In this document: piece after piece, positions 730 through 14,751 of the stretch
Position numbering within the stretch: position 1 is the stretch's first letter
Layout: every line of letters starts with the position of its first letter
DNA from: a virus
Direction: 5' to 3' (one strand)
Virus record (IMG/VR): IMGVR_UViG_3300045988_151376
Length of the DNA: 51,907 nt
The notes under the pieces: model-generated
Database searches by the model: none
Told to the model about the DNA's origin: nothing
Seen by the model: only the letters and a program-made list of their open reading frames with translations
Position numbers and translations under genes: made by a program

Positions 730-1476
730 TCATTCAAGAGAAGACTGAAGAACCTGAACAACCGAATCGCGCCATTGAATTTGGAACCCTGAGTGGTTGT
801 TGCGCTCGTAAGGTCGGTTCTCGCCGTGAGCGGAGCCTGCTTCTGTCAGTTGCCACTGCTTGCCAACTTTTTTCTGGAATCCGAGCTTTTCTAGGAGCTT
901 GTTAACCTTGGCTGCGGCGGTTGTTGGGATGAGGCGTTTGCCGATCTCGGTCGGGTTGAGTAAGGCTGTCTCCGTTACTGGCACTGATGGAATGAGAGCG
1001 CGAAATGGGTCCGTTGGCATACCAATGTCCTTTTGGACCACCGAAAGCGCGTGCGCTGCCGCTCTTTCCTGCGGAACGTTGAACGTCTTGGCGAGCGTGT
1101 TCGCGATGAAAAAGGCAGCCTGAGCGCGCTCTATTGAGTAGGCGAGAGACTGCTGCGTTTTCTCATGCTGTGAACGAAGCTCGGTTTCCATTGCGTTAAA
1201 GGCGTTGATGTACTTGAGCTTCCATTCCATCGCTTTGCCTCCAGTAAAGCCCATAACGAGCAGACTGAAGCCGTCGCGGTTCATCAAAAACTCGGGGAAC
1301 GTTTTTCCACGGGAAGAGTAGGAACTTTCGATGAAAAATTTGGCGGCGGAATTTTCCGCCGTGAGAATTTCTCGGATGGCATAAAGCACATCTTTGTGTT
1401 CTTTCCCAAAGTTGTCAGCGATCTGCCGACTGCTCACAACTACTTGGTCGTTTACGACTTCAACAATTCCATTCAT
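730..1476 (-). CDS. Rha-family phage regulatory protein or antirepressor (paralogue 1)
   Basis: N-terminus VVSSRQIADNFGKEHKDVLYAIREI...FLMNRDGFSLLVMGFTGGKAMEWKLKYINAFNAME matches the Rha-domain pattern. Confidence 0.85.
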   Translation of the reverse strand: MNGIVEVVNDQVVVSSRQIADNFGKEHKDVLYAIREILTAENSAAKFFIESSYSSRGKTFPEFLMNRDGFSLLVMGFTGGKAMEWKLKYINAFNAMETELRSQHEKTQQSLAYSIERAQAAFFIANTLAKTFNVPQERAAAHALSVVQKDIGMPTDPFRALIPSVPVTETALLNPTEIGKRLIPTTAAAKVNKLLEKLGFQKKVGKQWQLTEAGSAHGENRPYERNNHSGFQIQWRDSVVQVLQSSLE

Positions 1477-1493: not shown

Positions 1494-1530
1494 TAAAAGA
1501 AAAGCCCCGGCGCTTTTCGGCGTCGAGGCT
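1494..1530 (-). terminator. Intrinsic terminator. Member of a two-copy repeat with 10612..10647
   Basis: aaaagccccggcgcttttcggcgtcgaggct: 10-bp imperfect stem with an A-run on the plus strand. Near-identical sequence occurs downstream of the paralogue at 10671. Confidence 0.55.
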
Positions 1531-1552
1531 GTTGGTTAGAAATAGGTATCAG

Positions 1553-2449
1553 TTACGCGGGCTGATGAGCCAGCCAGTGACGGTAGCAGGGCAGGTCTTC
1601 CATCCTGTAGCCGTGCTTGCTCAGGTCGTTCTCAATGAAGTAGAGATGCATGCACGTGAAGAACTCATAGAACTGCGCGGCAAGCGGCGATTTCATCTGA
1701 TTAAGCGTGTTGTAGAACGCCTGAATCTGCGGGCGGAAGAGGTACCGCAGGCAGTAGATTCCGGCGAGAAGGTTCTTTGCCTCTGCGTCCGTGAGGTAGA
1801 AGGCAGGAATCCTTTCCGGGATTCGCTCATCGCGGTAGGTCGTTGCCTCGATGCGCTTGCGTTCGGACTCTTCTTTCTGAAGCCACTGTTCGCGGCTCAT
1901 GATCGGAGCCTTCTGGATGAAGTCGAGAGCCGCTTCGAAGTCGCGCTTCTGCAGGCAGGTGTACCGCGGGATGCGGAAATGGTCCTTGAGGGCGGAGTAG
2001 ATCACGCGGAAGTTCTTCCCGATGCCGGCGGCGCGACGTCCGACTGCGCGCTGAATCTCGCGCTGTTGGGCCTCGTCGATGTAGTCGGGGCCGCCCTCGC
2101 CTGAGAGCGCCTTTTCCATCCGGTCGAACTCATCGATATAAGCCCACTTGAACTTGTCAGCTTTCTCGCCGGTAAAGCCCATGGCGAGGAACGTGAAGCC
2201 TGCTTTCGTGAGGGCATACGCCTTGTACTTCACGATGCCCTTTCCGAGGTTGGAAGGGCGCTCAAGCTCTACGGGGATGAAGTTCCCGCGACGATCTTCC
2301 GGCGTGCGCTGGATAATGTCTTCGACGTCGCGAAGGACGTGACGATGATTCTTTTCAAAGACGGCTGAGATGTTCGTCGTAAGGACGGTAGCAAGACCGT
2401 TGCAGACAGTGATAGCGGGCGCAGTGGTGCGCGTTTTGACAGCGTTCAT
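1553..2449 (-). CDS. Rha-domain antirepressor with shared ORF6C/KilA-C-like C-terminal domain (paralogue 2)
   Basis: Start moved to the ATG at 2449, which has the SD aaggaga 6 nt upstream. Rha motif FEKNHRHVLRDVEDII...LTKAGFTFLAMGFTGEKADKFKWAYIDEFDRME. The C-terminal half is shared with 4577..5398 and 10671..11555. Confidence 0.85.
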   Translation of the reverse strand: MNAVKTRTTAPAITVCNGLATVLTTNISAVFEKNHRHVLRDVEDIIQRTPEDRRGNFIPVELERPSNLGKGIVKYKAYALTKAGFTFLAMGFTGEKADKFKWAYIDEFDRMEKALSGEGGPDYIDEAQQREIQRAVGRRAAGIGKNFRVIYSALKDHFRIPRYTCLQKRDFEAALDFIQKAPIMSREQWLQKEESERKRIEATTYRDERIPERIPAFYLTDAEAKNLLAGIYCLRYLFRPQIQAFYNTLNQMKSPLAAQFYEFFTCMHLYFIENDLSKHGYRMEDLPCYRHWLAHQPA

Positions 2450-2634
2450 GCTTGTCTCCTTGAGAGGTTTAAGAACCTCGCTCCCACTTTCGACGGTGGT
2501 GGGCGAGGCATCGCGGGGTCGAAAACCGATCTCAAGGTATCGGCCACCCGAAGGTGCCCGCGAGCCTCTCCCATAAAGGAGACTTTCACGCAAGTCTGTG
2601 ATTTTCTCTAGAAGCCCAAAATTGGGCACCTAAG

Positions 2635-2722
2635 AAAAAAAGCCGCTTCCAACGGTCGGCGGCTTTCTTGCGCCTTGAGATCAGTCGGGTTTCGACGCCC
2701 GTCCCCGTCGCTTTCACGGGGC
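2635..2722 (-). ncRNA. Candidate ~90-nt terminated leader RNA or small RNA (copy A)
   Basis: Runs from the predicted transcription start just downstream of the promoter to the hairpin agccgc-N12-gcggct plus U-run. Contains the hairpin ccccg-tgaaagcga-cgggg. Duplicated at about 5576..5660. Confidence 0.4.
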
Positions 2723-2728
2723 AGGGAT

Positions 2729-2757
2729 ATTCTGCCCGATCTTAGGCGCTGTGTCAA
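2729..2757 (-). promoter_or_regulatory. Sigma70-type promoter (TTGACA-17-CAGAAT), leader copy A
   Basis: Minus strand: TTGACA (2752..2757), 17-nt spacer, CAGAAT (2729..2734). Confidence 0.6.
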
Positions 2758-2790
2758 AATACTATATGCGTTCGTACATCGGAGAAACAG

Positions 2791-3615
2791 ATGCCTGAAG
2801 TCGTTGCCTCAAATGCTGATATTGAAGTCTTGGATAACTGCAGTCACAAGAATGGGCATCGTTACTGGCTAGCGAAGGAGTTCATGCTACGTTTGGGATA
2901 TAGCTCTTGGGACCAGTTTAGGAGGGTCATTAACAGGGCTATTGCTTCATGTGCAAAGTTAGAACTGGACGTCTCTGAGGCATTTGAACAGATCCGTAGC
3001 GACGATGGCCGACTGGTTGACTACAAGCTGAACCGGTTCGCTTGCTTTCTGATTGCGACTTACGCTAACGACAAAAAGCCTGAAGTGCAACGCATCAAGA
3101 TAGCCCTGTCTGCCTTTGCTGAGACAGTTATCCAAGCCGCAATCGACTCGAACAGCGTCCTCCGTATAGAGACGCGAGAAGATCTAAAGTCTGCGGAAAA
3201 GCTCTTGAGCTCAGCCGCAAAGGAAGCCGGAGTTAACTCAGGCGAGTTTGGGCTATTTAAAGACGCAGGATTCCGAGGCATGTACAACATGTCTCTCGCG
3301 GATCTCCGGGCCCATAAGGGCGTGATTGGTAACGGACGTAAGTCTCCAGTTTTATACGACTTCATGGGCATAACGGAACTGGCGGGCAACTTGTTCCGAG
3401 ATACGCAAACCGCGGAGCGCATTCGCAGTAAAAATGTTCGTGGGCTTAGAGAAGCCGCAGATTCTGCACGAACGGTTGGTAAAGAAGTGCGCGACATGAT
3501 GATCCGAAATAGCGGTGTCAAGCCGGAAGACTTACCCGTTGAGGAAGACGTCAAGAAAGTGAAGACTCGTCTCAAGAAGGCCAGTCGAACCATGATCAAA
3601 CATGACAAAAATTGA
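2791..3615 (+). CDS. dinD: DNA-damage-inducible protein D (DinD)-like protein
   Basis: Collinear similarity, from memory, to E. coli DinD (HMGSTELAANLFRATQTEEKL versus FMGITELAGNLFRDTQTAERI here). RBS ggagaaacag before the ATG. Opposite strand to its neighbours. Confidence 0.75.
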   Translation: MPEVVASNADIEVLDNCSHKNGHRYWLAKEFMLRLGYSSWDQFRRVINRAIASCAKLELDVSEAFEQIRSDDGRLVDYKLNRFACFLIATYANDKKPEVQRIKIALSAFAETVIQAAIDSNSVLRIETREDLKSAEKLLSSAAKEAGVNSGEFGLFKDAGFRGMYNMSLADLRAHKGVIGNGRKSPVLYDFMGITELAGNLFRDTQTAERIRSKNVRGLREAADSARTVGKEVRDMMIRNSGVKPEDLPVEEDVKKVKTRLKKASRTMIKHDKN

Positions 3616-3801
3616 ACGCATTTTGGCCAATCACGTCATTTTGATGCCGTCTGCCTAAGCGCGCATCCACGTGGGAGGCGGTTTTCACTGCTTATCCTAG
3701 AAGGCAAGCGGCATCAAGATGAAGCCCCTGGGCGGGGCTGAAATCCAAATTAAGTTTGGGGTTTATGATGATTTTTTACTCTTCATTCTGGCGGCCCCTT
3801 T

Positions 3802-3945
3802 TTAGCTGATGACGACGGACTGACGGTCTTCGAGAGCCGCGCCGGGAATGACCTCACCGGATTTTAGGGCCTTTTTGAGGGCCACTTTATCCGGGTCGAT
3901 GGTCGTTTTGACGTGCTTGAATGCGTCGGCGGCTGCGCAGCTTTT
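3802..3945 (-). pseudogene. Start-less remnant duplicating the C-terminal ~41 aa of the Gp157-like gene at 7213..7704
   Basis: The frame translates to DAFKHVKTTIDPDKVALKKALKSGEVIPGAALEDRQSVVIS*, versus EAFRRIKTTIDPDKVALKKALKDGETIPGAALEERQSVVIS* at 7213. It is bounded upstream by an in-frame TAG and has no start codon. Confidence 0.75.
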
Positions 3946-4049
3946 CTAGCTTTCTTTGCACGTGCTGACCGCGTTTTGATTGCTCTACGTGCATCACGAC
4001 TCAATTCGTGCTTAGGGCGCCGATGTGGGTGGGAGGGAATACTCATCAT
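3864..4049 (-). CDS. Doubtful 61-aa basic ORF that runs out of frame into the Gp157 remnant
   Basis: Good RBS (gaggag 6 nt upstream of ATGATG), but the C-terminal half is an out-of-frame reading of the remnant. Possibly a decayed fusion. Confidence 0.25.
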   Translation of the reverse strand: MMSIPSHPHRRPKHELSRDARRAIKTRSARAKKARKAAQPPTHSSTSKRPSTRIKWPSKRP

Positions 4050-4061
4050 GCAGGCTCCTCA

Positions 4062-4337
4062 TTACGCCCCGCGGGACTTGTAGAAATTGTGCCAATCCTG
4101 AACGAGTTGGCTGAATTCCTTGGTCTTGCTGATTTTTTTACTTAGCCACGATTCAAAATCCTCAAGTGAAGGATCTTTGACGCAGCGGCTGTACCATTGG
4201 TAAACGATAATTGCCTCACGTCCGCGGGCTGCGATTGCTTCTTGGGTCGCTAATTCGAGTCTTGCGCCCAGAGCAACATTCAAAGCGGCGCCGCCAACTA
4301 AGTGTTGCAGCGCGGTGGTGATGACTTTGACGTTCAT
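4062..4337 (-). CDS. Hypothetical protein (91 aa)
   Basis: ORF with RBS aggag. No recognisable domain. Confidence 0.55.
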   Translation of the reverse strand: MNVKVITTALQHLVGGAALNVALGARLELATQEAIAARGREAIIVYQWYSRCVKDPSLEDFESWLSKKISKTKEFSQLVQDWHNFYKSRGA

Positions 4338-4348
4338 TGGCTGAACTC

Positions 4349-4510
4349 CTAAAAAAGTACGTAACCATTAAGAACTGCCCACTGCATGAGCAGGCAGAGT
4401 GAGATACCGAGAGCGCTGATACCGGCGCCAGTCAGAAAGGCGCAGAAGATGATTGCGGTATCGCTGAACCCAGTACGTTCGTTGTGGCCGAGAAGTTTTT
4501 TCAACGTCAT
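4349..4510 (-). CDS. Possible small membrane protein (53 aa; below the ORF-track cutoff)
   Basis: Hand translation MTLKKLLGHNERTGFSDTAIIFCAFLTGAGISALGISLCLLMQWAVLNGYVLF*. The stop overlaps the RBS of the next gene. Its own RBS is weak. Confidence 0.3.
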   Translation of the reverse strand: MTLKKLLGHNERTGFSDTAIIFCAFLTGAGISALGISLCLLMQWAVLNGYVLF

Positions 4511-4521
4511 GTCGTTCTCGG

Positions 4522-4558
4522 AAAAAAGAAAGGCCCCGGCAGGTGAGTGCCGAGGCCT
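4522..4558 (-). terminator. Intrinsic terminator after the BRO-N antirepressor gene
   Basis: Minus strand: ggcctcggca-ctcacc-tgccggggcc followed by tttctttttt. Confidence 0.6.
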
Positions 4559-4576
4559 ATTAAGAAAATTAGGTGA

Positions 4577-5398
4577 TTACGCGGTTAAGCGCTTGGGCTG
4601 TTGCGAAGCCCAGTGTTGGTAGCACGAGAGATCTTTCACCGAGTATCCCTGCTTGGCTAGAGCATCTTCCATAAAGCCAAGTCCCAGATCATTAACGGCT
4701 TCCCAAAAATGAGCTGCGAGAGGGGATTTCACGCGGCGCAAGAGCGCTAAAAAGAGATTCAGATCGTCTCGAAAGAGATATCGCCAGTAATAGATAAAGA
4801 CAACGATTTTCTCGGCCATAGCCTCGTCGATCACGATTGACCCTTCGGGAATTGCCGGAGCCGAAAGCTGCGGCTTAAGTGTGCATGTCTCGATGAGTGC
4901 GAGTGCTGCTTTCATCTGATCGTGTCTTAGGTCTTTGTAGCTCGCGATCTTGAAGTAATCGTAAAGAGCGTTGTAGACCGTCTGGTAGTGAACCGATGAG
5001 TTCTTTGCGCGTGACTTGATAGCTTTGCGGATCTCGTACTGCTCTGTAGTCGTGATCAGCGCGGACTGGTCTGTTTCGTAGCGTCCCGTGCGGCGAATCG
5101 CCGGCAGAACTTCCGACGTTACCCAGCGCTTGAAGCGTTTTGCGCTCTCCAGCTTGGAGCCGAAGATCAGTGCGTAGAGGCCGGACTCGGTGACGCAGTT
5201 GACGGTTTGCGTGCGGCCCATGCTGTCGGTGATCTCGGCCTTGACGATGTCTTCAGGGTCGACAAGATCGGCAATCGCCTTACGCGGATTGCTGTGTGAG
5301 AGCGCCTTGCAGATGTCGGTTGCGACAAAAAGAGGCGCTTCAGGCGTGCCAAGGGTGCGGACGGAAGAATTCTCAAAAGAGAAAGTGAGTGCAGACAT
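4577..5398 (-). CDS. BRO-N-domain antirepressor with the same shared C-terminal domain (paralogue 3)
   Basis: N-terminus FENSSVRTLGTPEAPLFVATDICKALSHSNPRKAI...SGLYALIFGSKLESAKRFKRWVTSEVLPAIRRTG fits BRO-N. The C-terminus aligns with paralogues 2 and 4 (VKSPLAAHFWEAV...GYSVKDLSCYQHW). SD aaggaga. Confidence 0.85.
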   Translation of the reverse strand: MSALTFSFENSSVRTLGTPEAPLFVATDICKALSHSNPRKAIADLVDPEDIVKAEITDSMGRTQTVNCVTESGLYALIFGSKLESAKRFKRWVTSEVLPAIRRTGRYETDQSALITTTEQYEIRKAIKSRAKNSSVHYQTVYNALYDYFKIASYKDLRHDQMKAALALIETCTLKPQLSAPAIPEGSIVIDEAMAEKIVVFIYYWRYLFRDDLNLFLALLRRVKSPLAAHFWEAVNDLGLGFMEDALAKQGYSVKDLSCYQHWASQQPKRLTA

Positions 5399-5695
5399 TT
5401 AGGTCTCCTTAGATGCGTTGAATGCCGCTCGCACGGTTCCAATCGTGGCGGGCGGGCTTGTAGGTTTGGAACGCCGCTCTAAGGAAACGGCCCCTCGAAG
5501 AGGGTCCTACAAGCCCACCCATAAAGGAGGCTTGTCGATGACGTAACTGCCGGTTACGCCATCCTGCACATCAAATAAAAAGCCGCTTCCAACGGTCGGC
5601 GGCTTTATTGTGCGCCTTAGAGTCGGGGTTCCAATCCCGTCCCCGTCGCTTTCACGGGGCACGAACATTGTGCCCGATCTTAGGCGCTGTGTCAA
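5399..5695 (-). promoter_or_regulatory. Structured 5' leader of antirepressor paralogue 3 (copy B), same architecture as 2450..2757
   Basis: e1 CUCUAAGG (plus 5615..5622), terminator (5576..5606), e2 CCUUAGAG (plus 5477..5484), e3 UCUAAGGAG containing the SD (plus 5405..5413). Confidence 0.6.
5667..5695 (-). promoter_or_regulatory. Sigma70-type promoter (TTGACA-17-CACAAT), leader copy B
   Basis: Minus strand: TTGACA (5690..5695), 17-nt spacer, CACAAT (5667..5672). Confidence 0.6.
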
Positions 5696-5740
5696 AATGG
5701 AAAAGGAGCTTGCGACAAACGTCGCGAGGGGAGTCTTGCC

Positions 5741-6307
5741 ATGAATAATCTTTATCGATCTCTTATTTCGTTGGCTACCGTGTTCCCGTTGAGCATCACG
5801 TTCAGCTATTTGTACTCGGATTGGCTGCTGAGCCTGTTGCCTGATGTGGTCTCTCATTTCTTAGAAGCTCACCTGAACGCGCAGCTGGTATTCGTTTTGT
5901 GCGCAGTGGTGTTCAACTATGCTCTTGGGCAAATAATCCTGATCTACCTCGGGTGGGTCGCGACGAAGTTGGATCGACTCCCCGTGAAGCTAACAAGCGT
6001 CAAAGAGCTGGGCACAGATAGCCTGTTGGCCTATCTGCCATATGTTCTTCCTTTGTTCATGATCCAGGGAGATCGCCAAGAGCCGACGGGGTGGTTGCTT
6101 GGCGGGATCTTGTTGTTGATCCTCTCGTGGGCGTCAATGACGATTGCTTTTTCCCCATTGCTGCGAATTTGTGGAATGCGCTTTTTTGAGGCCACGCGAC
6201 CAGACGGCACTACTGTGACGGTGTTGATCAAAAATCCCAGCCTTAGGCCGTTGCGATTGACGGAAGCTTCAAGTATTTCGGATAACTGCTTGTATGGATT
6301 GAAATGA
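5741..6307 (+). CDS. Four-TM membrane protein, first gene of an AT-rich two-gene island (KwaA-like architecture)
   Basis: Four hydrophobic segments (SLISLATVFPLSITF, LVFVLCAVVFNYALGQIILIYLGWV, LLAYLPYVLPLFMI, WLLGGILLLILSWASMTIAF) and a soluble tail. The stop overlaps the next start (ATGATG). Opposite strand to its neighbours. Confidence 0.7.
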   Translation: MNNLYRSLISLATVFPLSITFSYLYSDWLLSLLPDVVSHFLEAHLNAQLVFVLCAVVFNYALGQIILIYLGWVATKLDRLPVKLTSVKELGTDSLLAYLPYVLPLFMIQGDRQEPTGWLLGGILLLILSWASMTIAFSPLLRICGMRFFEATRPDGTTVTVLIKNPSLRPLRLTEASSISDNCLYGLK

Positions 6308-7197
6308 TGGATAACGCGGAATCTCTGTTTGTCTCTGGAGCCTCTTTTCGTGGGGTGTCGACCTGCGTTCGGCGTCTCAAACTCATGTCTGATGCGGCCA
6401 ATGATATAAGCGCCGTTGTCAGAAGCCAATACGAAGAGTTTTCAGAGCTAAGCGAAGTTGAATTCGACGGTCGTTACAAGGTGGAATCAGACGAATGCTT
6501 TTCCATCAGCGACTATGTTGATGCCGATGGAACATTCGCGTCGTTTCAGGAAATCATTAATGGTAACTGTAGCGATGTACTGAAAAACACGGATTCCTTA
6601 AGCGAATGCCGTGCTCTATTGTTCCGAGCGCCACAATTACCTAATCTGGTGCTAATTCAGCGCTTCACCAATTCTTATCTCGCTAAGCGCGATCGTTGGT
6701 TTGGTTTCGGTTGCAGCGACTCAGTCAGAAAAATCGAAGAGTCCGCATTCACTATTGCATCGTCGCTTTCAGGGGTCTATGACCTCGAGTCAAAAAGATT
6801 GCGTTTTAAAAGTGTTCAGAACATCCGCGCGGTCCTTCCGGGGTTTTCTGATCAGTATGCGCCCGGAGCGGACAAGACGACCATTACAACCTTCTTCCGA
6901 CAGCCAATCTTCGATCAAGATAGTGCAGACAAAGTCCAAGCGCTTGATTCGATGAAGGTGGCTCGCTTGGTATGGCTACTAAAAGAGCAGGACGCCCCTC
7001 TCGAAAGAAGGCTGGCTACTTTTCAGAAATACGATGAAATTCTCAACCTGAACTCAGTCAGAAATGGAAAAATCATTGTGAGCACAGAAGTGCGCAAAAT
7101 GGAGGTGATTCTTCGCATTTTGTTGGGGGATGTGTTTGAAGACAATGGACGAATCTATTTAAGCAACTCGAAGAGGCCAATCGAACGATTTGCGTGA
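6304..7197 (+). CDS. 297-aa soluble partner of the membrane protein (KwaB/DUF4868-sized; family unverified)
   Basis: Translationally coupled to 5741..6307. AT-richer than the backbone. No motif I can name with certainty. Confidence 0.7.
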   Translation: MMDNAESLFVSGASFRGVSTCVRRLKLMSDAANDISAVVRSQYEEFSELSEVEFDGRYKVESDECFSISDYVDADGTFASFQEIINGNCSDVLKNTDSLSECRALLFRAPQLPNLVLIQRFTNSYLAKRDRWFGFGCSDSVRKIEESAFTIASSLSGVYDLESKRLRFKSVQNIRAVLPGFSDQYAPGADKTTITTFFRQPIFDQDSADKVQALDSMKVARLVWLLKEQDAPLERRLATFQKYDEILNLNSVRNGKIIVSTEVRKMEVILRILLGDVFEDNGRIYLSNSKRPIERFA

Positions 7198-10670: not shown

Positions 10671-11555
10671 TTACGCGGGCTGATGGCTCAGCCAGTGTTT
10701 GTAGCAAGGAAGCTCCTTGACGCTGTATCCGATCTTGTCGAGAGAGGCTTCAAGGTTCAGCCAGTTGAAGTCGTGAACGGCTTCCCACATGGATGCAGCG
10801 TAGGGCGAATCGACGCTTCGGAGGAAGTCCACATAGCGCTCGAGGTTTGCGCGATGCAGGTAGCGCCACGTGTAGACGAGAGACCGTAGTTCCTCCATGA
10901 AGTGCGCCTTGACGGTGTAGACCTTCGGCGGGATCGGCTCGTCGTGATAAGTGGCAGCCTCGATGCGCTTCATCTGAGCCTTTTCATGCTCGATGCATTC
11001 TTCACGCGTCATGATTTTGACTGACTGGATGAAGGAGATTGCGGCCTCGAAGTCTTTTTCGAGAATCCGCTTGTAGCTGGGGACGTTGAAATGATTTTTC
11101 AGCGCCGAGTAAATCGTTTGATAGTTGATCCCGTAGCCTTCGGAGCGGCGGCCTACTGCTCTTTGGATTTCGCGTTGCTGTGCGTCGGTGATATATGCCG
11201 GAGCGGGAGGATTCTTCAGCGCCTGTTCCATCCGCTCGAACTCATCGTAGAAAGCACACTTGAATTCGAGCGCCTTAGCACCGGTGAAGCCCATAGCCAA
11301 TAGACAGAAGCCCTTGCGATCCATCCAGTACGCAGGAACCTTTCGAGTAGCACCCTTGTCGTTCAGACTGACTGTTTCTGAGTATCGCGCAAAATTGCGT
11401 AATACTTGAAGTTCTTGATTTTTTGCAATTAGGTCATCTACCGCGCGAACTACGTCGCTGTGCTTTTTGCCAAAGTATTCTGCAACTTTGAAGCTGGACG
11501 TAACCGCACGGCCTTCAACCACACGGAAGGCATTTTGAACAATGTTCTGAGCCAT
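10671..11555 (-). CDS. Rha-domain antirepressor with shared C-terminal domain (paralogue 4)
   Basis: Start moved to the ATG at 11555 (SD aaggag). Rha motif FKVAEYFGKKHSDVVRAVDDLI...WMDRKGFCLLAMGFTGAKALEFKCAFYDEFERME. C-terminus GYSVKELPCYKHWLSHQPA. Confidence 0.85.
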   Translation of the reverse strand: MAQNIVQNAFRVVEGRAVTSSFKVAEYFGKKHSDVVRAVDDLIAKNQELQVLRNFARYSETVSLNDKGATRKVPAYWMDRKGFCLLAMGFTGAKALEFKCAFYDEFERMEQALKNPPAPAYITDAQQREIQRAVGRRSEGYGINYQTIYSALKNHFNVPSYKRILEKDFEAAISFIQSVKIMTREECIEHEKAQMKRIEAATYHDEPIPPKVYTVKAHFMEELRSLVYTWRYLHRANLERYVDFLRSVDSPYAASMWEAVHDFNWLNLEASLDKIGYSVKELPCYKHWLSHQPA

Positions 11556-11760
11556 TGTGAACTCCTTTACATATTTGATTAATCGCCCCTTTTGAGAGGG
11601 CGGCCAAGCGCTCAAAACCGTGTAAAGGCGGCGGGCATATTTCCCTTTCGGGTTTTTTATTAGCCTCACGCTCAGCCATGAGCTGAGCTATCCGCGCCCA
11701 TAGGGCTACAGATACAAAAAAATCCGCATGACTGACAGGGCGGAATCCGCTTTACAGGTG
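11556..11760 (-). promoter_or_regulatory. 5' leader of paralogue 4 with its own anti-SD/SD pair
   Basis: Minus RNA: e2 CCUUUACA (plus 11621..11628) is complementary to UGUAAAGG at the SD (plus 11564..11571). An upstream UGUAAAG (plus 11750..11756) precedes a weak hairpin with U7. Confidence 0.45.
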
Positions 11761-11966
11761 TTTTGAGCACCTGAGCGCAGTATGCCCGAATCTGCAAGCG
11801 ATGTCAAAATTCAGGTTCAAGCCGCCTCCCGGAGCGTGCCTTGCATGGGGGCGCGGCATTCTTGGAATAAATGCCGGGGAAGCGGCCTGAAGCTGGGCTC
11901 TCATAGGAGAGCATGAAAAAGCCCCCGCACCTTTCGATGCGAGGGCCTGATTGTTCGTGTCAGCGA

Positions 11967-14014: not shown

Positions 14015-14725
14015 CTATCGTCTTCGGCGATAGGAGCGACGGTGTTCAACCATAACGCCAATGACGGAAAGTCTTTCCGTGCGCGAGTTGTATATCGGAT
14101 AGTCCTCATTAAGTGGGATCAATTCGAAGATTTCATTTCCATACTCGTCATATCCGCGGGGACGATATTTTTTGAATGTTGTTTCCATGTCGTCCGAGAA
14201 CTTACTGACCCTTGTTGCAATTACAAAATCACCAGGCATTGGATGAATAGTGGGATCAACAACGATGATGTCTCCCTCTTGGAAATCTGGTTCCATCGAA
14301 CTCCCAATAACCTTGAGGGCGTAACAATCATCGGGCAGGTCCATGTCAACCCAAATGAAATCCCCGCTTTCGATTGCTGCCTGCCTGGCAGCAATTTGCC
14401 CTGTTGATGTGGGATCTCCTGCCTGTGCATAGGAAAGGATGGGAATCCTTTTCATCCTCCCACGAATAGGCTCAACATTGCTCTGGTTAGCGGGAGGCTG
14501 GTCGTTTGATACAAGAGGCTCTCCTACGCCGTTAACGATCCAGTTTTGATTGAGAGGCAATTTGGAGCAAATAGCGAGAGCCGGAGCGGACTTCATATTT
14601 TTCGTCTTGCCCGACACCCAACTTGCCACAGAGGGCTGCTTGATGCCCGCCAACGCGGCTAGCTCCGATTGCGAGATATTGAAGTGCTGAAGCACCCAAG
14701 AGATTCTTTCTGAAAGCGTTGTCAT
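14015..14725 (-). CDS. CI-type repressor: XRE HTH plus S24 (LexA-like) self-cleaving peptidase domain
   Basis: N-terminal HTH SQSELAALAGIKQPSVASWVSGK. C-terminal ALKVIGSSMEPDFQEGDIIVVDP...TFKKY carries the Ser/Lys dyad context. ATG at 14725 with almost no leader. Confidence 0.9.
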   Translation of the reverse strand: MTTLSERISWVLQHFNISQSELAALAGIKQPSVASWVSGKTKNMKSAPALAICSKLPLNQNWIVNGVGEPLVSNDQPPANQSNVEPIRGRMKRIPILSYAQAGDPTSTGQIAARQAAIESGDFIWVDMDLPDDCYALKVIGSSMEPDFQEGDIIVVDPTIHPMPGDFVIATRVSKFSDDMETTFKKYRPRGYDEYGNEIFELIPLNEDYPIYNSRTERLSVIGVMVEHRRSYRRRR

Positions 14726-14751
14726 GATAGACAAGCCTATCGGTTCGTGTG

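Follow-up and report, generated by a model that had tools for sequence, protein, structure and literature searches.

A probable immI-type antirepressor control module with a C4 antisense RNA, its paralogues and its co-varying relatives

Which kind of RNA control stands ahead of the antirepressor-type gene ant is the question raised by the IMG/VR virus record IMGVR_UViG_3300045988_151376. The whole stretch of 51,907 nucleotides (51.9 kb) is called the window here; all coordinates are positions in it and the module is read on the minus strand. A preliminary description of this locus had proposed a three-part RNA switch with an upstream decoy, an anti-Shine-Dalgarno element in a hairpin loop and the Shine-Dalgarno (SD) region of the gene. 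According to our analysis the region 2447-2757 (-) is very probably an immI-type antirepressor control module with a layout homologous to P1/P7 c4-icd-ant, Gifsy-1 IsrK-orf45-anrP and P4 seqA-CI-seqC. The module is a further example of the C4/IsrK-type antirepressor lock, a family known since 1990, and not a new kind of RNA switch. For its recognition words the P1 nomenclature (a1/b1, a'/b' and a2/b2) is used.

The module begins with a sigma70-like promoter (TTGACA-17-CAGAAT, 2729-2757 (-)), the sole one predicted for it. The leader RNA (2636-2722 (-)) comprises the hairpins H1 (2721-2703 (-)) and H2 (2701-2686 (-)), the latter with the a1 word GUCGAAA (2690-2696 (-)) in its loop, followed by the single-stranded b1 word GAUCUCAAGG (2673-2682 (-)), which corresponds to the proposed decoy and contains the core UCUCAAGG (2680-2673), and by an intrinsic terminator (2635-2666 (-)). 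The stem of this terminator is formed by AAAGCCGC (2666-2659) and GCGGCUUU (2646-2639) around a 12-nucleotide (nt) loop, with a U7 run at 2641-2635; a weaker alternative hairpin, CCGUU-GGA-AGCGG, shares its 3' strand. Directly 5' of C4 lies the segment GUCUCCUU (2576-2583 (-)), the complement of the SD sequence AAGGAGAC. The C4 antisense RNA itself (2495-2578 (-)) has an outer stem P1, a hairpin P2 with a UUCG tetraloop and a hairpin P3 (2544-2525 (-); stem GCCGAU/AUCGGU, 2544-2539 / 2530-2525) that exposes the b' word CCUUGAGA (2530-2537 (-)) in its loop, whereas the a' word UUUCGAC (2518-2524 (-)) occupies the single-stranded junction between P3 and P1. Immediately 3' of C4 a small CCAC/GUGG hairpin presents the a2 word GUCGAAA (2488-2494 (-)) in its loop. 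The b2/SD region UCUCAAGGAGA (2455-2465 (-)), seven bases ahead of the ant start codon (ATG, 2449-2447), includes the b2 word UCUCAAGG (2465-2458), which overlaps the Shine-Dalgarno sequence AAGGAG(A). Direct reading of 1500-3300 placed the three words of the preliminary description where it had located them on the minus strand, with CCUUGAGA in a hairpin loop and the terminator (hairpin plus U7) between it and the upstream word. The second word triple (a1, a' and a2) and the conserved GUCUCCUU had been overlooked. Two sites, a and b, take part in recognition instead of a single one.

A conserved GGCGC... just 3' of b1 (2630-2672 (-)) is complementary to sequence past the terminator U-tract, and the same is seen in the related loci L017 and L016 (for L017 GCGCACAGCC / GGCUGUGCGC, seen by eye only). 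Through this pairing a read-through RNA could form a long hairpin around the terminator, which might be a processing site.

Do these parts belong to described RNA families? The whole window was scanned against Rfam at gathering thresholds, and relaxed thresholds (E<=10) were used for the leader. The window contains three matches, two to C4 and one to sRNA-Xcc1. C4 (RF01695) was detected at 2578-2495 (-) with 54.2 bits (gathering threshold 45) over model positions 1-87, and its second copy at 5526-5444 (-), part of what we call module 2, reaches 53.0 bits; the sRNA-Xcc1 match (RF02221) at 11677-11594 (-), in module 3, scores 70.6 bits. The 77-nt RNA of the first module folds into the three-way junction typical of C4 (minimum free energy (MFE) -41.8 kcal/mol) with the UUCG tetraloop, accessible a' and b' and the conserved UAU|GG at the C4 5' end. 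Its two exposed segments pair with a2 over 7 nt and, on AAGGAG, with b2 over 8 nt, and both pairs co-vary. The upstream duplicate sites a1 and b1 are complementary to a' and b' as well.

The leader is an IsrK/c4-a1b1-type RNA by structure and sub-threshold by score. In the published c4-a1b1 motif (Weinberg et al. 2010, supplement of PMC2864571) two hairpins are followed immediately 3' by b1, and a1 resides in the second loop (CGGG...CCCG). Exactly this layout is seen here, with two hairpins right after the -10 box, a1 in the second loop and b1 directly 3' of it. With the model of the Hfq-binding RNA isrK (RF01394) the leader (2722-2636) matches over the full length 1-77 including the terminator (33.7 bits, E 9.5e-6), and the leader of module 2 obtains 32.5 bits, both below the gathering threshold of 50. 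P1's own leader is likewise sub-threshold for isrK (35.1 bits) and scores 51.0 bits with c4-a1b1 (RF03163), the P4 seqA leader yields 60.8 and 44.1 bits with the two models, and the P4 CI RNA matches C4 with 74.9 bits.

Complementarity around an SD-like word might also arise by chance and be devoid of any function. The AAGG/CCUU part of the b words is indeed forced by the SD consensus, and GTCGAAA is not over-represented in the window (11 found vs 11 expected). Against this stands the 8-mer TCTCAAGG, for which, counted together with its complement, the 51.9-kb window has 7 occurrences compared with 2.2 expected, three of these seven lying inside 223 nt. The decision comes from related modules, which were found by exact-pattern scans for leader hairpin and terminator in IMG/VR (16 contigs recovered), GTDB genomes (1 contig of a metagenome-assembled genome) and human-gut metagenomes (52 contigs). 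Including the window's two own C4 copies, 66 complete modules were obtained, 37 of them distinct and belonging to about 12 a/b classes. Their scaffold is nearly constant, and their words comprise GUCGAAA, UUGGAAC, UUGGCGU, GUGAGAA and UUGGUCU for a, and UCUCAAGG, UCUAAGG, UCAUACGG, UCAACUGG, UCCAUAGG, UACAAGG, UCGAAAGG, CUAGAAGG, UCGAAUGG and UCGUAAGG for b. Within each class b1 equals b2 and is the reverse complement of b', just as a1 equals a2 and is the reverse complement of a', with few exceptions, and the matching is kept even where the SD itself becomes ACGGAG, CUGGAG or AUGGAG. A 17 x 17 matrix gave matches of 14-17 nt between each C4 and the leader and target of its own module as compared with off-diagonal means of 5.7 and 7.3 nt, and none of 20000 permutations reached the observed total matching. 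As the strong compensatory covariation shows, the three words are real, functionally linked pairing partners, and with three-way co-variation in some dozen classes, SD changes included, chance is excluded; the probability that we leave to it is negligible. As the upstream copy has been re-matched across a dozen a/b codes, a1 and b1 are clearly under selection to match C4.

An alignment of 32 distinct modules with MAFFT resolves this matching by helix. Between leader and C4 93.3% of positions are paired and 12 of 17 pairs are changed on both sides, with a covariation score of 0.489 vs 0.127 after shuffling (0/500) and only 33-52% pairing in slid registers. The a1:a' helix shows changes on both sides in 6/7 pairs, the b1:b' helix is 97% paired with six compensatory pairs, and the b':b2 helix is 94% paired with compensation in 6/8 pairs, again including SD changes. 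For a':a2 the alignment gives only 62% pairing (58% after a slide by +1), because MAFFT set a2 words of the AUUGG type one column out of register; in the exact-word analysis a 7-nt match is found in all but one class. The scaffold co-varies too: 15 structural C4 pairs are changed on both sides over the 32 modules (0/500 shuffles), all six pairs of H1 are changed on both sides, and H2 is 100% paired.

The exceptions are few. A tandem copy has an a1 that does not match, a2 carries a point change in one case, and one leader is recombinant. In contig L047 two tandem modules (1386-1660 and 3586-3860), separated by 2.2 kb, have the same C4 and the same targets, and the first has a1 = GUGAGAA as compared with a' = UUUCGAC; this first copy possibly carries a recombinant leader. 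L018 and L035 (units u09 and u17) have a full promoter-leader-C4 unit with unrelated sequence in place of a2, b2 and ant right after C4. Such orphans may be stand-alone immunity RNAs or recombination scars. A comparison of the published c4-a1b1 alignment with L002, L006, L016 and L017 revealed shared a words: GUGAGAA, the loop of P4 seqA, recurs in the class of L006, and AUUGGCGU is the a1 loop in prophage leaders of E. coli O157 Sakai and Salmonella LT2. That a words are common to very distant elements suggests a limited, reused vocabulary or an exchange of specificity cassettes.

Within the phage itself each of the three antirepressor paralogues has a lock with an a/b code of its own. The claim that the paralogous copies change their words in step was found to be correct. 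Module 2 (5396-5695 (-)) is composed of a promoter (5695-5667), an IsrK-like leader (5660-5576) with a1 UUGGAAC (5634-5628) and b1 CUCUAAGG (5622-5615), the C4 at 5526-5444 with b' CCUUAGA and a' GUUCCAA, a2 and b2 on the SD, and the start codon at 5398. Its codes are UUGGAAC/GUUCCAA and UCUAAGG/CCUUAGA. In module 3 (11553-11807 (-)) the sRNA-Xcc1 RNA (11677-11594) takes the place of C4. Behind the promoter (11779-11807), and with the terminator (11744-11716) downstream of b1, the order of words is the same, i.e. a1 (11767-11761), b1 (11756-11750), b' (11628-11621), a' (11617-11611), a2 (11596-11590) and b2 (11571-11564), followed by the ATG at 11555; the codes are CUCAAAA/UUUUGAG and UGUAAAGG/CCUUUACA. 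Modules 2 and 3 each possess an equivalent single upstream promoter. The promoters at 2729-2757, 5667-5695 and 11779-11807 (-) share a conserved spacer of the type GACA-CAGCGCCUAAGAUCGGGCA, also seen in many related loci, which could be an operator for a phage repressor, as Op51 in P1.

How would such a module work? A scan for sigma70 promoters between terminator and C4 revealed no second promoter in modules 1, 2 or 3; C4 and ant can be made only by read-through. With the parts, their complementarity and accessibility, their co-variation and a single promoter ahead of the terminator all shown, the following course can be proposed. Transcription from 2757-2729 would yield the short leader, which by sequence, fold and covariation has a1 in a hairpin loop and b1 single-stranded and stops at the intrinsic terminator. 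Read-through transcripts carry C4 (2578-2495) with its exposed a' and b' words complementary to a2 and b2 just downstream. By analogy with the family, C4 would be cut from the transcript by RNase P at the UAU|GGG 5' end, the expected cut being 5' of GGGAGAGG, and would bind a2/b2 in cis and in trans, so that ribosome binding is blocked and no antirepressor is formed; mechanism and RNase P processing of C4 are summarised in PMC5320573. Indirect signs of such a release and of trans action in this module are the sole predicted promoter, the conserved UAU|GG and the orphan C4 units. The gene ant should then be silent in the lysogen and also when it arrives with an incoming phage of the same a/b code. 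The leader would serve as target mimic with a1 and b1 binding the same a' and b', in module 1 slightly better than the target, and the ratio of leader to C4 would presumably set ant translation.

A rival reading, close to the original proposal, is a purely cis-acting leader with three states, in which CCUUGAGA folds on the SD and the upstream word relieves this block in the same read-through molecule, with no diffusible RNA involved. All elements are indeed on one transcript, and in Gifsy-1 compensatory mutations have demonstrated that the IsrK part pairs in cis with sequence downstream of it (structure A; PMC4825925). Folding of the full leader, which had been recommended as a check, gave an MFE structure that does hide the SD in a long-range helix, but the partner is GUCUCCUU (2583-2576) and not b'. 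This helix is 89.7% paired in the 32 modules and mostly invariant, with only two compensatory pairs; for this reason we regard a long-range GUCUCCUU:SD helix around C4 in the primary transcript as plausible rather than proven. What stood of the cis switch is that the words are linked pairing partners and that the 3' one is the ribosome-binding site (RBS) of ant; the supposed anti-SD hairpin, however, is P3 of a three-way-junction C4 RNA of about 80 nt. The words b' and a' thus reside in a stable, family-conserved RNA above the C4 gathering threshold, and since C4 in P1/P7 is cut out of the transcript as a diffusible, trans-acting immunity repressor, the module is not primarily a cis three-state leader. 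Furthermore, a between-genome immunity determinant is expected to have two separate recognition words and a single scaffold with many orthogonal codes, and the orphan leader-C4 units devoid of ant make sense only for a trans-acting RNA. Control exclusively in cis is accordingly regarded as unlikely.

Concerning the role of the leader, it is most likely, by analogy with studied relatives, an anti-antisense decoy or activator. This role is favoured because of the proposal of Citron & Schuster in 1990 that a1/b1 compete with a2/b2, as quoted in the supplement of PMC2864571, and because of the trans activation by IsrK in Gifsy-1, where the short terminated RNA has its own read-through mRNA as trans target and increases anrP translation 139-fold, as supported by compensatory mutations (PMC4825925). 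A decoy word in a short terminated leader that can compete for the middle word is what the preliminary description had put forward; this part holds, though the idea dates from 1990. Its "12 bp" for the decoy, longer than the 8-bp pairing of the SD, needs qualification: exact b1:b' pairing extends over 10 nt vs 8 nt for b2:b', and 12 bp (with the longer stretch cugaUCUCAAGG, 2684-2673 (-)) count one G.U pair and need the 3' strand of the hairpin stem to be opened.

Since RNAfold of the full leader does not consider loop-to-strand pairings (pseudoknots), accessibility and duplex energies were used, net energies being the duplex energy plus the opening costs. In module 1 all six words are accessible, and the upstream mimic is the slightly better partner with an estimated net -7.4 kcal/mol for b1:b' vs -4.2 for b2:b', which does not apply to all three modules. 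For both sites together the net energies of leader (a1+b1) and target (a2+b2) are -12.6 and -9.5 kcal/mol in module 1, -11.1 and -10.2 kcal/mol in module 2, and about +1 and -8.6 kcal/mol in module 3.

A different role of the leader would be that of a transcription attenuator that senses C4, mainly in place of a decoy; the two are compatible and both may operate. In this model the 3' end of b1 (GG) and a conserved CGC pair with the 5' half of the terminator stem and leave a weak hairpin before the U-tract. Binding of C4 to b1 would free this strand, the strong terminator would form and transcription would stop, by which C4 would limit its own synthesis as well as transcription of ant. The probability of the terminator stem was calculated as mean pair probability for a nascent leader ended at the terminator 3' strand, either free or with words masked. 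In module 1 it rises from 0.04 (free) to 0.86 (b1 masked) and 0.93 (a1 and b1 masked), in module 2 from 0.02-0.04 to 0.94-0.95 (both masked), in the mean of 32 distinct leaders from 0.10 to 0.71 (b1 masked) and 0.80 (both masked), and in P1 from 0.54 to 0.96 (both masked). The dependence of C4 and ant on read-through fits to this model. Moreover, the CI RNA of P4, a member of the C4 family, is described as causing premature termination via pairing with seqA and seqC (PMC4825925), and Hershko-Shalev et al. (2016) consider this possible for the IsrK terminator as well (PMC4825925). On the other side, these values come only from equilibrium folding of related scaffolds, the anti-terminator has only about four G-C pairs, and a hairpin still precedes the U-tract in the free state. 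The 32 leaders, picked by an exact match to the terminator pattern, share one scaffold and are not independent, and covariation of the anti-terminator pairing could not become visible in them. For module 3 (0.94 free, 0.85 with both masked) and P4 (0.97 in both states) the calculation predicts no effect, and co-expression of the downstream RNA in Gifsy-1 does not give what the model predicts (PMC4825925). Attenuation as the main role of the leader is in our opinion a real possibility that nonetheless falls short of being the probable one. Still somewhat more tentative is its extension, in which the leader is an RNA-sensing attenuator that makes each module a code-specific homeostat for the ratio of mimic to C4-plus-ant RNA, the same device operating on another scaffold across the sRNA-Xcc1 family.

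Some observations speak against an immI-type module with a decoy leader. The c4-a1b1 model (RF03163) finds no match at E<=10 in 2400-2800, and with 33.7 bits the leader stays under the isrK gathering threshold of 50. There are the rare natural exceptions mentioned above, i.e. the a1 of the first L047 copy, which mismatches a', and the point change in the a2 of L027. Module 3 has a weak b1 that is partly buried (net +3.0 kcal/mol). Transcript ends, C4 processing and trans action are deduced by homology. The role given to a1/b1 is the weakest step, because three studied relatives give three roles (competitor, trans-activator and termination target). Finally, the downstream logic may differ from P1 and Gifsy-1, since b2 lies here on the SD of ant itself and in those elements a small open reading frame (ORF), icd or orf45, is located between the RNA and the antirepressor gene.

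Comparison with known systems makes likeness and difference evident. The GenBank record of P1 annotates a1, b1, c4, a2, b2 and icd in the same order. The module shares with P1/P7 immI the order of the six words and the C4 fold (outer stem, P2 tetraloop hairpin, P3 with the b' loop and a' in the joining strand), the position of a1 in the second leader-hairpin loop with b1 just 3', b2 on an RBS, and the regulation of an antirepressor. Between b1 and c4 of P1, in the position where module 1 has its terminator, there is likewise a hairpin with a 12-nt loop plus a U-run. In contrast with P1/P7, b2 is the antirepressor's own SD and no icd-like gene with its own RBS is found; no C1-type operator is annotated here; sequence identity is low and the leader is missed by the c4-a1b1 model; the protein is of the Rha/Bro plus ORF6C type instead of P1 Ant1/2, and the genome has three modules where P1/P7 have one.

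In Gifsy-1 IsrK-orf45 (STnc1160)-anrP a short small RNA (sRNA) ends at a Rho-independent terminator, a fraction of transcripts reads through into a translationally silent antirepressor-like gene, and processing of the read-through RNA yields a stable product (PMC4825925). The short form has its complement in a structured region further downstream and acts in trans to activate translation, the mechanism involving an upstream ORF coupled to the antirepressor (PMC4825925). Module 1 has a comparable ORF running through C4 (2446-2589 (-)), with a GTG at 2589 (47 codons) or a conserved AUG at 2574 at the C4 5' end (42 codons). It stops at the TGA 2448-2446 in an AUGA overlap with the ant start codon, like orf45 on anrP. 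Besides the lower isrK score of the leader (33.7 vs 50), the difference to Gifsy-1 is that this ORF lacks an SD and is not conserved in other classes: it is common to the modules of the same scaffold in L008, L041 and L047, and frame and length are not kept in module 2 or in other classes. Translational coupling of ant to it is probably not required because ant has a strong SD of its own.

P4 offers the same three-part layout of seqA, CI RNA (seqB) and seqC with CI as C4-family RNA; the documented outcome, as given in PMC4825925, is premature termination of the replication operon and not translational control of an antirepressor.

The sar RNA of phage P22, also small and antisense, likewise prevents translation of an antirepressor (ant) by acting at its RBS, but it is a fully complementary transcript of the opposite strand and lacks the C4 fold, the two-word code and an upstream mimic. 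From its studied relatives the module in the window differs by a C4 that targets the antirepressor's own SD, by three orthogonal locks and by one of these being built on an sRNA-Xcc1 RNA. The less expected points are the shift of the terminator stem on masking of b1 and the third paralogue, an sRNA-Xcc1 with the same design.

In this third module an a1 hairpin, b1 and a terminator precede the sRNA-Xcc1, which presents b' in a hairpin loop and a' in a joining strand, and a2 and b2 (on the SD) follow downstream; the module sits ahead of an antirepressor-like gene. Matched words upstream (beside a terminator) and downstream (on the SD) were likewise found in 45 distinct variants of the Xcc1 type from IMG/VR (loci L072-L151; 0/20000 permutations). 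Homology of sRNA-Xcc1 with C4 was considered and rejected: module 3 gives no match to the C4, isrK or c4-a1b1 covariance models at E<=10, and sRNA-Xcc1 is not in the C4 clan. Therefore only an analogous design is claimed. Compared with C4, sRNA-Xcc1 has a longer P2 and a shorter outer stem, and the leader of its modules has one hairpin in place of two. In the literature RF02221 is known as an integron-borne Xanthomonas sRNA under control of HrpG/HrpX that is linked with virulence and whose mechanism is unclear, and the publications examined on it do not describe a C4-like antisense regulator of the adjacent gene.

The gene product controlled by module 1 (298 amino acids) is by family match a putative antirepressor-type protein with a Rha N-domain and a C-domain of the ORF6C/KilAC type (Pfam Phage_pRha 3.6e-23 and ORF6C 2.1e-06; PHROG anti-repressor phrog_373 1e-24); its gene occupies 1553-2449 (-). 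The window represents a temperate phage or prophage. Early genes are encoded on the minus strand and the genes from terminase to tail on the plus strand, and an S24 CI-like repressor gene is located at 14015-14734. Its TerL is at most 57% identical to those of cultured phages, and megablast of 1500-6500 against phage and plasmid collections gave no match. Within 12 kb four Rha/Bro antirepressor-like genes are accompanied by a divergent gene with weak likeness to Bro-N (phrog_8036); these five genes are located at 730-1476 (-), 1553-2449 (-), 2791-3615 (+), 4577-5398 (-) and 10671-11555 (-). Upstream of the gene at 730-1476 (-) there is a terminator-like hairpin (about 1530-1495); this gene has neither a C4 lock nor an obvious SD.

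The main value of the locus is the natural covariation series to which it belongs, with a dozen a/b codes on one near-constant scaffold in gut phages. Whether a1/b1 act as competitor, trans-activator or termination target has been under debate ever since P1 was studied, and this series makes the question directly testable; at the same time it supplies orthogonal sets that are ready for use in tests of these models and in the construction of programmable RNA locks. For the phage itself, an orthogonal lock on each of its three antirepressor paralogues suggests switches for induction or anti-immunity that can be addressed separately. The sRNA-Xcc1 design would, if confirmed, provide a mechanism for a widely annotated sRNA family, and if the attenuator and homeostat model were true, the "virulence/integron" sRNA-Xcc1 would be recast as C4-like locks on the adjacent gene.

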